DNA from: a virus
Taxonomy: Duplodnaviria; Caudoviricetes
Virus record (IMG/VR): IMGVR_UViG_3300035102_000318
Coordinates: 1 to 39,913 of that record
Strand: one strand, 5' to 3'
Length of the DNA: 39,913 nt
Part shown: in pieces, positions 246 to 39,913 of the stretch
Layout of the letters: each line of letters starts with the position of its first letter
Numbering within the stretch: position 1 is the first letter of the stretch
The notes under the pieces: generated by a model
Told to the model about the DNA's origin: nothing
Databases searched by the model: none
The model's input: only the letters and a program-made list of their open reading frames with translations
Position numbers and translations under genes: made by a program

Positions 246-1016
246 CTAGTAGTTCCTGATGAAGAGCTCCTTGCAGCCCGTCTTGTTGACCTTGCCGGTC
301 GTGTACGTTGTTGTGGTTGATGTTGTGTTGAAATCTTTAAATATATCACGCACTTGCTTTGTGTCGTTTATGGACAGCAGGAACCGCCCCTGGATGGTGT
401 GGAGCTGGTTGGCCAGGAAAGCGAAGTCTTCGTGGGCGAAGATGCCCTTGCCGTAGTGGTCCTCGCAGCCGTCATAAGGCGGGTCGATGTAGAAGAACGT
501 CCTGGGCCGGTCATACCGGGCTATGACGTCGGCGAACGGGAGGTTCTCTATGAATACGTCGGCCAGGCGCCAGTGGGCCTGCAGGAGGTCGTCCTGGAGG
601 CGGGCCAGGTTGAACATGGGGCGCTTGGTTGTCGCGTACCCATAGGTCGGCTTCACGATCCGCCCGCCGAACCCTGCCTTGAGGAGGTAGAAGAACCTGG
701 CAGAGCGCTGTACATCGGTGAGGTGTTGCGGGTCCAGGTCCTTCTGTTTTTGGAACTCGGACCGGCTGCTCAGTATCCACTCGAGCTCCTCAACCAACGC
801 TTTCAGGTGGTACTTCACAACCCTGAAGAACGAGACCAGATCCCCGTTTATGTCGTTGATCACTTCCGACCGGGAGAGCGCCGGGTCCTTCCGGAACAGC
901 ACCCAGGCAGCTCCGGCGAAGGGCTCACAGTAGCAATCGTGTTCCGGAATCTGCGGTTCGATCTGCTTGTACAGTTTGCTCTTGCCGCCTTTCCAGCCTG
1001 ATAGAGGGCTTTTCAT
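246..1016 (-). CDS. DNA adenine methyltransferase (Dam/D12 class), at the Mu mom position
   Basis: Motifs W.GGK, EPFAG (SAM binding), NDIN and DPPY (catalytic). ATG at 1016 is preceded by AAGGA. Confidence 0.92.
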   Translation of the reverse strand: MKSPLSGWKGGKSKLYKQIEPQIPEHDCYCEPFAGAAWVLFRKDPALSRSEVINDINGDLVSFFRVVKYHLKALVEELEWILSSRSEFQKQKDLDPQHLTDVQRSARFFYLLKAGFGGRIVKPTYGYATTKRPMFNLARLQDDLLQAHWRLADVFIENLPFADVIARYDRPRTFFYIDPPYDGCEDHYGKGIFAHEDFAFLANQLHTIQGRFLLSINDTKQVRDIFKDFNTTSTTTTYTTGKVNKTGCKELFIRNY

Positions 1017-1026
1017 CTTTTGATCC

Positions 1027-1055
1027 TTTACGGTTAAGCCTACAGCCTGTAGTGT
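1027..1055 (+). promoter_or_regulatory. Putative sigma70 promoter, antisense to the methylase leader
   Basis: TTTACG (1027-1032), 17 bp spacer, TAGTGT (1050-1055), directly upstream of a structured segment. Confidence 0.5.
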
Positions 1056-1061
1056 TCTGCC

Positions 1062-1160
1062 ACCCAACGCGTTGGGGCATGGAGCAGCTGGCTTCGGCTG
1101 GTGGTGCGGTATGTCAGTACCGCGCCAGTGGGGGTGCGGCTACACCCCCGCCTGTTCCTC
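1062..1160 (+). ncRNA. Candidate cloverleaf (four-way junction) small RNA
   Basis: Closing stem GGAGCAG/CTGTTCC, a cUUCGg hairpin, a 10-bp stem TGGTGCGGTA/TACCGCGCCA and a 7-bp stem GGGGGTG/CACCCCC. The G-U pairs work only on the + strand. Confidence 0.6.
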
Positions 1161-1218
1161 TTGTAGCGGCCCGCCGGAGTAACCCGGTGGGTCGTTGTCT
1201 GTTTCCTTGCCTATTCGA

Positions 1219-1230
1219 TTGTCAAAGAGC
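1219..1230 (-). promoter_or_regulatory. boxA-like antitermination element
   Basis: GCTCTTTGACAA on the minus strand, just after the stop of the last structural gene. One mismatch to boxA GCTCTTTAACAA. Confidence 0.4.
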
Positions 1231-1234
1231 CGGT

Positions 1235-1552
1235 TTAGAACGACGTGGCGTCGATCATGACGTCCTCTGCGATGATGGGTGACGGGCGCCCCGTTGTGTC
1301 CACCACCCAGCACTCGCAAAACCAGCGACCGGCGCGGTTGAGCTGCTCCCAGTCCTCGGGGGTCAGTTCGAAGTCGATGAGTGTGCCCTGGACAGTGCCG
1401 GTTTTGACCAATCGGGCATCAGCTCCCTTGAAGGTGGCTAGCAGAAAGGTGTAGGTCGCGCCGGTGAGGTCCTCCAACTGGCCGTTGGTCGTGACCGTGA
1501 TCCGGACCCGACGATACTCGCCATGGGTGATTTCAAAAGCATAGGCGTTCAT
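1235..1552 (-). CDS. Putative virion structural protein, BppU N-terminal-like
   Basis: Beta-rich pattern 'DLTGAT..F', 'FELTPED...L...G.W..E'. Last gene of the tail operon. Confidence 0.55.
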   Translation of the reverse strand: MNAYAFEITHGEYRRVRITVTTNGQLEDLTGATYTFLLATFKGADARLVKTGTVQGTLIDFELTPEDWEQLNRAGRWFCECWVVDTTGRPSPIIAEDVMIDATSF

Positions 1553-29684: not shown

Positions 29685-30119
29685 CTATTGGTTACAGGCC
29701 TTGGCCATGCGGTCATAAAGAATCACGTTCACCGTGGCCGCCAGATTCATGCACCTGGTTGTCGGAATGTAGACCACGTCTCGGCAGAACGATGTGATCC
29801 GTTCGCCGAGCGTGTGGTCTTCGGCCCCGAAAATGTAGAAGGCCCGCTCCGGATGCTGGTATTCAGGGAGAGGGGTCGCTCCATTGATGAGGTCCACGGC
29901 TACGGGTACACAGTCATAGGGAATGACGGTCTTGAGATTGTCCACCTGCAACAACGGTGTGTGGCGATATACCTTCATCGTGTCGCTGCCGTGCTTCTTG
30001 TACCGCTTGCCAGTGACCGCAACCATGGCGGCATTGTAGCAACCGGCGGCACGGAGAACGGAGCCGATATTCACGTCATACTTGGGAAGGTCCAAGCCGA
30101 TTGCGGCAAAACCTCTCAT
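29685..30119 (-). CDS. SpoU/TrmH-family (SPOUT) RNA methyltransferase, minimal TrmL-sized
   Basis: 'N.GSVLRAA' motif 1, 'YIFGAED..L' motif 2, 'VYIP...CMNLAATVNVILYDR' motif 3. Confidence 0.9.
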   Translation of the reverse strand: MRGFAAIGLDLPKYDVNIGSVLRAAGCYNAAMVAVTGKRYKKHGSDTMKVYRHTPLLQVDNLKTVIPYDCVPVAVDLINGATPLPEYQHPERAFYIFGAEDHTLGERITSFCRDVVYIPTTRCMNLAATVNVILYDRMAKACNQ

Positions 30120-30153
30120 TGCGTATTCCTCTCTGCTCTTTGCGGATAGTGCG

Positions 30154-30459
30154 TTATTCGCCTCGCCACTTCTTGACGGCTTCTTTGAGTGCGCGGCTAT
30201 TAACCATGTTCGGGTTAATTCCTTCGACAATTTCAGTGTATGAAAGAAGGCTCGCTATATGGTGTTCCACCTCGGCCTGCTTCGTGTCGTAACGTTCACA
30301 GTCGTATAGGCTCCACTGCACGATGGGCGCGACTTCGCTGTCGCAGTAGATGCGGACATTGATTGTCTCGCATCCGGGGTCGCACTCGTCACACATGCTG
30401 TCGAACTTGCCGATACAGCCGGTCGGCTTGTGGCGGATATGTTCATTTGCTTCAAACAT
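30154..30459 (-). CDS. Hypothetical protein
   Basis: 101-aa ORF, GAGG RBS, lower GC. Confidence 0.55.
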   Translation of the reverse strand: MFEANEHIRHKPTGCIGKFDSMCDECDPGCETINVRIYCDSEVAPIVQWSLYDCERYDTKQAEVEHHIASLLSYTEIVEGINPNMVNSRALKEAVKKWRGE

Positions 30460-32214: not shown

Positions 32215-32287
32215 GCTGCTTTCCCTTCGGCTGCTCATCAGGCCCGGGCCGCCACGCCCGAACGACCGCCCCGCAGGGCGGTTTCGC

Positions 32288-32575
32288 TTATTTGTTCAGG
32301 GCCTCCTTCAGAACCTTGCCGGGTTTGAACTTCACTCCGACCGAGGGTGCGATCTCGACGGCCTCGCCGGTCCTGGGGTTACGGCCCTTGCGGCCCTTAC
32401 GTGTCACCGGCTCAAAGGAGCCAAAGCCGGTAATGACAACCTTCTCGCCCCGGATCAGGGCGTTGTGGAGGCTGTCCAGCATGCCGTTAACGGCGCGGAT
32501 CGCCGTGGCCTTGTCGTAGCCGGACTCCTGGCACATTGCTTTGTGGGTCGCGTCGATCAGTTCGGTCTTGTTCAT
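32288..32575 (-). CDS. HU family DNA-binding protein
   Basis: MNKTELI...GFGSF....RKGR.GRNPRTGE...I......KFKPGK.LK signature. Confidence 0.95.
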   Translation of the reverse strand: MNKTELIDATHKAMCQESGYDKATAIRAVNGMLDSLHNALIRGEKVVITGFGSFEPVTRKGRKGRNPRTGEAVEIAPSVGVKFKPGKVLKEALNK

Positions 32576-39542: not shown

Positions 39543-39714
39543 CTCAGCTTGGCTGAAAAACAATTCCCATACAGCGTTCTTTTCTCATTTTACAAAAAGC
39601 CCGTCAGATACCTCCGAAGAAACCCAAGGAGCCCACGCCAGTCCTACATTCGTCCGACGTTTGTCCGATGTTCCCCAGGCCCCCCCCTTTTCTCATCTCT
39701 CCTGCCCCCCTACA
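39540..39714 (-). repeat. Prophage end (attL equivalent) with three putative transposase sites
   Basis: TTTCTCA at 39540-39546, 39581-39587 and 39689-39695; TACA terminus at 39711-39714. Confidence 0.8.
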
Positions 39715-39812: not shown

Positions 39813-39857
<45 letters not shown>

Positions 39858-39913
39858 ACCAAAGGGATAATTTCACATCCATTTTTATCTGCTTCTATAT
39901 GTGTCTAGATTAT

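Follow-up and report, generated by a model that had tools for sequence, protein, structure and literature searches.

A conserved four-way junction RNA element encoded antisense to the DNA modification operon in prophages of sulfate-reducing bacteria

We report that a four-way junction (4WJ) RNA element, real, conserved and apparently unnamed, lies ahead of the DNA modification operon in prophages of sulfate-reducing bacteria. The element was recognised in a viral DNA of 39,913 nucleotides (IMG/VR record IMGVR_UViG_3300035102_000318, Caudoviricetes), the whole of which is called the window in this work. A first-pass annotation of this DNA had proposed a structured plus-strand RNA antisense to the leader of a methylase gene, a proposal which is now backed by covariation among relatives and by strand bias. 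On balance we lean towards a constitutive cis-antisense RNA of about 145 bases which damps leaky read-through into the modification operon, and it is likely that the element keeps potentially toxic modification genes quiet until late infection.

Results

The window carries a Mu-like prophage with genes for a transposase, a Mu portal, a gpT capsid protein and a CI-like repressor. The last gene before the prophage end is a D12 methylase with its start codon at 1014-1016 (Table 1), whose nearest cellular homologue is found in a Desulfovibrionaceae assembly (L206); no com gene was found anywhere in the virus record. The last ORF of the co-directional tail cluster is the likely source of read-through into the methylase leader. 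Mu-type ends are likely represented by the TG at 128 and the CA finishing at 39714, the 5-base flanks of which are unlike each other so that no target duplication was seen, and a tRNA-like fragment for which ARAGORN makes no call lies at about 39815-39860. The prophage also encodes, on the minus strand, a SpoU-family RNA methyltransferase (29685-30230; PF00588, E 1e-14; no PHROG match) and a type II hammerhead ribozyme (32225-32289; Rfam, 78 bits, E 6e-15) placed in the early operon directly 3' of the stop of a HU-like gene (32288-32575).

Table 1. Features of the 4WJ element and of its flanking genes in the window
Feature	Position	Strand	Description
D12-class N6-adenine DNA methyltransferase	246..1016	-	256 aa; PF02086, E 5e-31
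Predicted sigma-70 promoter	1027..1055	+	-35 TTTACG 1027-1032, 17 nt, -10 TAGTGT 1050-1055
P0, 5' hairpin	1063..1076	+	Perfect 14-bp palindrome; RNA self-pairing predicted
4WJ core	1081..1158	+	P1 7 bp, P2 5 bp, P3 10 bp, P4 9 bp; variable loops, invariant junction pairs
P1	1081-1087/1152-1158	+	7 bp
P2	1088-1101	+	cUUCGg hairpin
P3	1102-1127	+	10 bp; 11 counting U-G
P4	1128-1151	+	9 bp
Terminator-like hairpin and U-rich tail	1163..1208 (hairpin 1163-1198)	+	Predicted 3' end of antisense RNA
rRNA-type boxA	1210..1230 (core 1219-1230)	-	4 nt past stop of upstream gene
Last ORF of co-directional tail cluster	1235..1552	-	105 aa, no family match

The 78-nt four-way junction claimed in the annotation is borne out, since the plus strand of the core folds at -49.7 kcal/mol (z -4.76) with none of 200 shuffles equalling it, and its relatives covary. 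The minus strand of the same segment reached a z of only -2.64, with a centroid lacking a closed junction, the predicted whole transcript (1062-1205) gave -5.31 on the plus and -1.72 on the minus strand, and the structure model scored the window at 88.5 bits on the plus against 25.8 on the minus strand. Of the arms that had been described, the closing stem, the cUUCGg hairpin and the 10-bp arm stand, whereas the supposed 7-bp arm is P4 and has 9 bp. There are no unpaired bases between the helices, making the junction linker-free, and the core starts with GG and has no NCCA. Neither the terminator-like hairpin nor the boxA had been noticed in the annotation. The 5' hairpin P0 is present but had been placed one base too early (1062-1075); its RNA duplex is predicted to be favoured over the hairpin (-30.9 against 2 x -5.7 kcal/mol). 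Both hexamers and the spacing of the proposed promoter are in place, but it scores under the cut-off of a simple promoter scan; the predicted +1 is A1062, and the -35 adjoins the complement of the methylase ribosome-binding site. The words GCTACA (1139-1144) and TGTAGC (1162-1167), which had been suggested to pair, both occur, but their pairing is not conserved in relatives and is private to the window copy, as is the UUCG loop.

Relatives were collected by pattern and profile searches. A first P3 pattern gave 120 loci with L126 as the sole relative among them, patterns made from shared parts gave 32, 15 and 92 loci, and an nhmmer profile search returned 65 distinct matches. Sixty-one of these were parsed and, together with 5 model matches, make up the 66 relatives analysed here; the unparsed nhmmer matches L449, L311, L439 and L413 were omitted. 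By DNA search the element is present in 18 of the 301 genomes from the family to which G001 belongs. A structure-model search had matches in 14 of 151 order-level genomes, and in 4 of 151 at the level of the phylum. Nineteen of the 23 order-level loci, those with new ids, were examined, and three repeat known members; a capsid-protein search gave 4 distant loci which were not used. P2 is short in 35 of the 61 parsed relatives and extended by about 25 nt in the other 26. Diverged four-way forms were also seen before D12 methylases outside the main group (L454:717-792, L455:1501-1573 and L212:192-263).

Covariation analysis, which the annotation had called for, was carried out on the 35 short forms and came out in favour of the fold. 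In these sequences 97.7% of the cells are paired and 16 of the 31 pairs change on both sides, a result matched by 0 of 500 shuffles, although kinship among relatives can inflate this test; slid controls paired at 41-56%. It should be noted that patterns on P4/P1 or P0 were used to find many of the relatives, which inflates the apparent conservation of those parts, whereas P2 and the inner P3 pairs were not fixed by the search patterns. Among the 1085 cells G-U outnumbers A-C by 125 to 3, and this fixes the element strand as the antisense one (plus in the window), which gives the more stable fold in 65 of the 66 relatives. The annotation had reached the same strand from its G-U pairs and the UUCG loop, of which only the former argument extends beyond the window. 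Loop sequences are highly variable, with 24 and 28 distinct sequences among the 35 short forms, and some recur as exact reverse complements of one another. The near-identical elements L299:1197-1274 (minus) and L301:855-932 (plus) differ in this way in their P3 loops, which suggests inversion of the loop between the stem repeats.

The element had no counterpart in the resources searched. An Rfam scan of the whole window, and one of positions 900-1400 at E<=10, returned chance matches alone at the element, so that the scan for c4 and related families which had been proposed gave no meaningful match there, and the same database gave nothing in 20 methylase loci. A BLAST comparison with annotated phages and plasmids found nothing meaningful, and no description of it came up in a literature search of titles and abstract openings that included few subscription papers. 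In the available part of one catalogue (PMC10690425), unnamed candidates (DNAVirus_2851, 3104, 3131, 549 and 909) are found no more than 25 bp from D12 methylase genes, and the 4WJ element may match an entry of this kind.

It had been suggested that the fold is a relative of the C4 and CI phage RNAs or a tRNA mimic. The core does resemble C4-type RNAs processed by RNase P (PMC5320573, in part) in its length of 78 nt, its three stem-loops with variable loops and its GG start behind a short leader, but RF01695 gave no match at the gathering score or at E<=10, and none in 6 loci of the 4WJ family. ARAGORN called 0 tRNA genes, NCCA follows P1 in 0 of 66 relatives and TTCRA occurs in only 3 of 66, and the arms of 9-10 bp without linkers also speak against both. 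Loops do not covary with the flanks from -130 to +90: for 62 loop pairs native matching was no better than swapped, with 101-446 of 500 shuffles as high, and tests of pairing between loops and flanks, of identity between them, and of P3-P4 kissing all gave values no higher than swapped controls. Hence a C4/CI-type RNA or a tRNA mimic appears most improbable, and neither kinship was upheld.

On the antisense strand of the relatives the -35 of the family profile is TT-rich, and the usual T closes the -10 in only 11 of 47 promoters, being absent from 36. Several copies have TAGCTT with a pyrimidine run as in the rRNA promoters of the host family, which have similar -10 words and pyrimidine runs, one of them also without the final T. 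In 54 of 66 relatives a TGnTA motif lies about 32 nt ahead of P1, the window copy not having this exact spacing. A hairpin with a U-run follows the core on the antisense strand in 30 of 62 cases and on the other strand in none, and is missing in 32. At L303, contigs from 4 of the 24 listed RNA runs cover the region, which indicates presence only and carries no strand, ends or level.

In 54 of 66 relatives P0 is perfectly palindromic over 8 nt or more. Among hairpins from 53 members which had not been selected on P0, the tetraloop is itself palindromic in 39 of 46, with four different words, against 1 in 16 expected. Together with invariant junction pairs around free loops, and with the duplex predicted for the window P0, this would suit a folded and possibly dimeric RNA that works by binding a protein and not by pairing with the mRNA, either as a decoy or as an RNA antitoxin, its partner being Com, the modification enzyme or a host factor. 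We nevertheless regard such a role as unlikely, as the perfect palindrome was found in only 9 of 19 order-wide loci (counted by eye), and the element stands before four unrelated enzyme classes and also at sites without com, so that no single phage protein fits a decoy model. The spacing to the start codon is fixed, at about 55-80 nt ahead of the com or methylase start, which argues for action in cis.

The first opposite-strand gene is com in 42 of the 66 relatives; a D12 methylase comes first in 16, and 8 are unparsed; the identity of Com was confirmed at L126 and L296. The element thus precedes com in most relatives and accompanies the modification operon without replacing com, contrary to the earlier idea that it stands in place of com; in the window phage the gene is simply missing. 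Rough motif labels for the genes behind com, checked for one Mom and one C5-type example, give 21 N6/N4 methylases, 7 Mom-like proteins and 2 C5-type methylases, and one protein of L296 is a match to Mom of Mu (PDB 8bv8, E 8e-69). In a search by structure model only, 17 of the 19 examined order-level loci were again antisense before com (13) or a D12 methylase (4).

The methylase strand carries its own signal. A boxA (up to 2 mismatches) is present on this strand in 34 of 66 relatives and on the other strand in none, and is missing in 32; it usually lies a few to about 25 bases past the stop of a co-directional gene. The same word stands upstream of rRNA genes, about 80 nt from 16S and about 25 nt from 23S, at each of the 8 multi-copy loci examined in three genomes of the host family. 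The position of boxA right after the stop of the upstream gene implies read-through across the element, and we infer from the motif that Nus factors may bind there; a boxA is able either to block or to promote Rho termination (PMC12360218, in part). TTGACA within the boxA was considered as a sense -35, and no -10 at the correct distance exists in the window sequence. Taken with the antisense promoter, these signals imply two opposed transcripts predicted over a single leader of about 200 nt.

The promoter could itself be the regulator, by occlusion or collision, with the fold stabilising the transcript or leading cargo genes. A competing divergent promoter, momP2, is known from Mu (PMC3378877, in part), and a same-strand ORF with a ribosome-binding site follows at 110 nt or less in 9 of the 32 members that lack boxA as against 2 of the 34 that have it. 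Such a reading leaves unexplained why 31 base pairs are conserved and the junction positions invariant, however, and we rate it as distinctly improbable. The antisense promoter appears to run on into a cargo ORF at L353, L412, L397, L372, L376, L312, L434 and L453; seven of these eight ORFs have no Pfam family, and one encodes a nucleoside 2-deoxyribosyltransferase.

A further reading has the sense leader hide the ribosome-binding site until it is opened by the antisense RNA or by Com, which would make the RNA an activator or the sense fold the switch. With the antisense-covered part blocked, the unpaired probability of the ribosome-binding site does go from 0.58 to 0.63, and is higher in 37 of 55 leaders, but this effect is small and the predicted pairing partner varies by member. 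No conserved sense-leader fold hiding the site was found in the 55 leaders or in that of the window, the sense leader of which (1000-1100) folds no better than shuffles (z -0.29), and the G-U bias favours the opposite strand. We therefore consider a sense switch very improbable and, as there is no consistent folding effect on the ribosome-binding site, we infer the mode and direction of regulation of the antisense RNA.

Discussion

The cis-antisense reading which we favour can be put as a sequence of predicted steps. Host sigma-70 polymerase would transcribe from about 1062 to about 1205, in the lysogen as well. The methylase mRNA would be the tail-operon transcript after crossing a ribosome-free leader of about 200 nt, through which boxA and Nus would protect it. 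The antisense RNA would pair with this leader, contact possibly beginning at the variable loops, which would match the leader automatically in cis, and pairing together with head-on transcription would stop or destabilise weak read-through. Strong late transcription would then overcome the antisense threshold. Since the predicted 5' end lies about 46 nt upstream of the start codon and the ribosome-binding site stays uncovered, the RNA would act upstream without direct masking. As in the class of cis-encoded antisense RNAs, the structure is conserved opposite its target gene, and loops that vary freely or occur as reverse complements are tolerable for such an RNA. Plain antisense pairing on its own requires neither the invariant junction pairs nor the palindrome in P0.

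A broader proposal is that of a portable two-strand cassette able to gate any modification enzyme of a Mu-like phage, with a host rRNA antitermination signal on one strand and, on the other, a linker-free, protein-binding RNA dimerising through P0 as antitoxin or switch and not by simple masking, the four-way form and the three-way form described below being independent or deeply diverged solutions for one slot; we hold this to be doubtful. If the regulation is as we propose, an RNA layer common to Mom and three methylase classes would let phages swap modification enzymes while the control is kept. One promoter, one RNA and one boxA make up a small testable unit. The element further provides a natural example of a four-way junction free of linkers, and extends the use of the rRNA boxA by phages beyond lambdoid nut sites.

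Among known systems the closest setting is that of Mu, where toxic Mom is multiply silenced (PMC3378877, in part). Control of mom is a classic case of an anti-restriction gene silenced in several layers, worked out with proteins. Com is a translational activator, Pmom is C-dependent and momP2 is divergent (PMC3299994 and PMC3378877, in part). In both systems com and Mom or a methylase lie at the prophage end and face a counter-oriented promoter; here, however, the RNA which that promoter is predicted to drive is structured, conserved and closed by a terminator-like end, and boxA suggests read-through. The available parts of PMC3299994 and PMC3378877 make no mention of an antisense RNA in Mu.

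A second likeness is to an element upstream of com or dam in beta- and gammaproteobacterial prophages, which shares the slot, strand, -10, palindromic 5' hairpin and a GTG-N6-CAC hairpin with the 4WJ element but forms a three-way junction with linkers instead of a linker-free four-way one. It covaries at 25 of 29 pairs (alignment A2). Of 5426 E. coli genomes 556 carry it, and among the 15 matches listed none has a feature annotated beneath it. One unannotated copy between dam and holin in a Mu-like E. coli prophage (L450:3501-3641) would be a convenient test system. Covariance model R1 gave L212, itself four-way, as the only significant match in 100 methylase loci, and model R2, run against the 66 sources, reached at best E 0.17 in the 4WJ family and had no match in the window. 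Neither family is detected by the model of the other, and homology between them is unsupported.

The C4 RNA of P1/P7 (RF01695) and P4 CI, the latter presumably comparable to the 4WJ element, are likewise phage-borne, of about 77-78 nt, with three stem-loops and variable loops. They differ in gene context, and the 4WJ element lies opposite the strand of its neighbour gene. Kissing-loop antisense RNAs are also known from plasmids, as in RNA I of ColE1. The RNAI/Inc RNAs of I-complex plasmids are cis-encoded and act upstream of the start site by loop-loop contact, with a UUGGCG loop named for Inc RNA (PMC10724649, in part). These plasmid RNAs control replication, however, and the 4WJ family has no covariation for a pseudoknot between loop and ribosome-binding site; a YUNR start, on either strand, is found in only 12 of 42 P3 and 9 of 27 P4 hexaloops.

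SymR of E. coli is likewise a small cis-antisense RNA, which lies opposite the 5' end of symE, a harmful gene (PMC1891008, in part). Its 3' hairpin loop, TTGGCG, also occurs in P4 of 4 of 35 4WJ members. SymR covers the start codon, whereas the 4WJ RNA has a four-way junction and is predicted to begin upstream, its +1 leaving the start codon outside; the SymR model (RF01809) matches a control locus and none of the loci of the 4WJ family, so that identity with SymR is rejected. By analogy, the 4WJ element would thus resemble a cis-antisense brake on a toxic gene, such as SymR and the plasmid Inc RNAs, in the com-mom setting of Mu.
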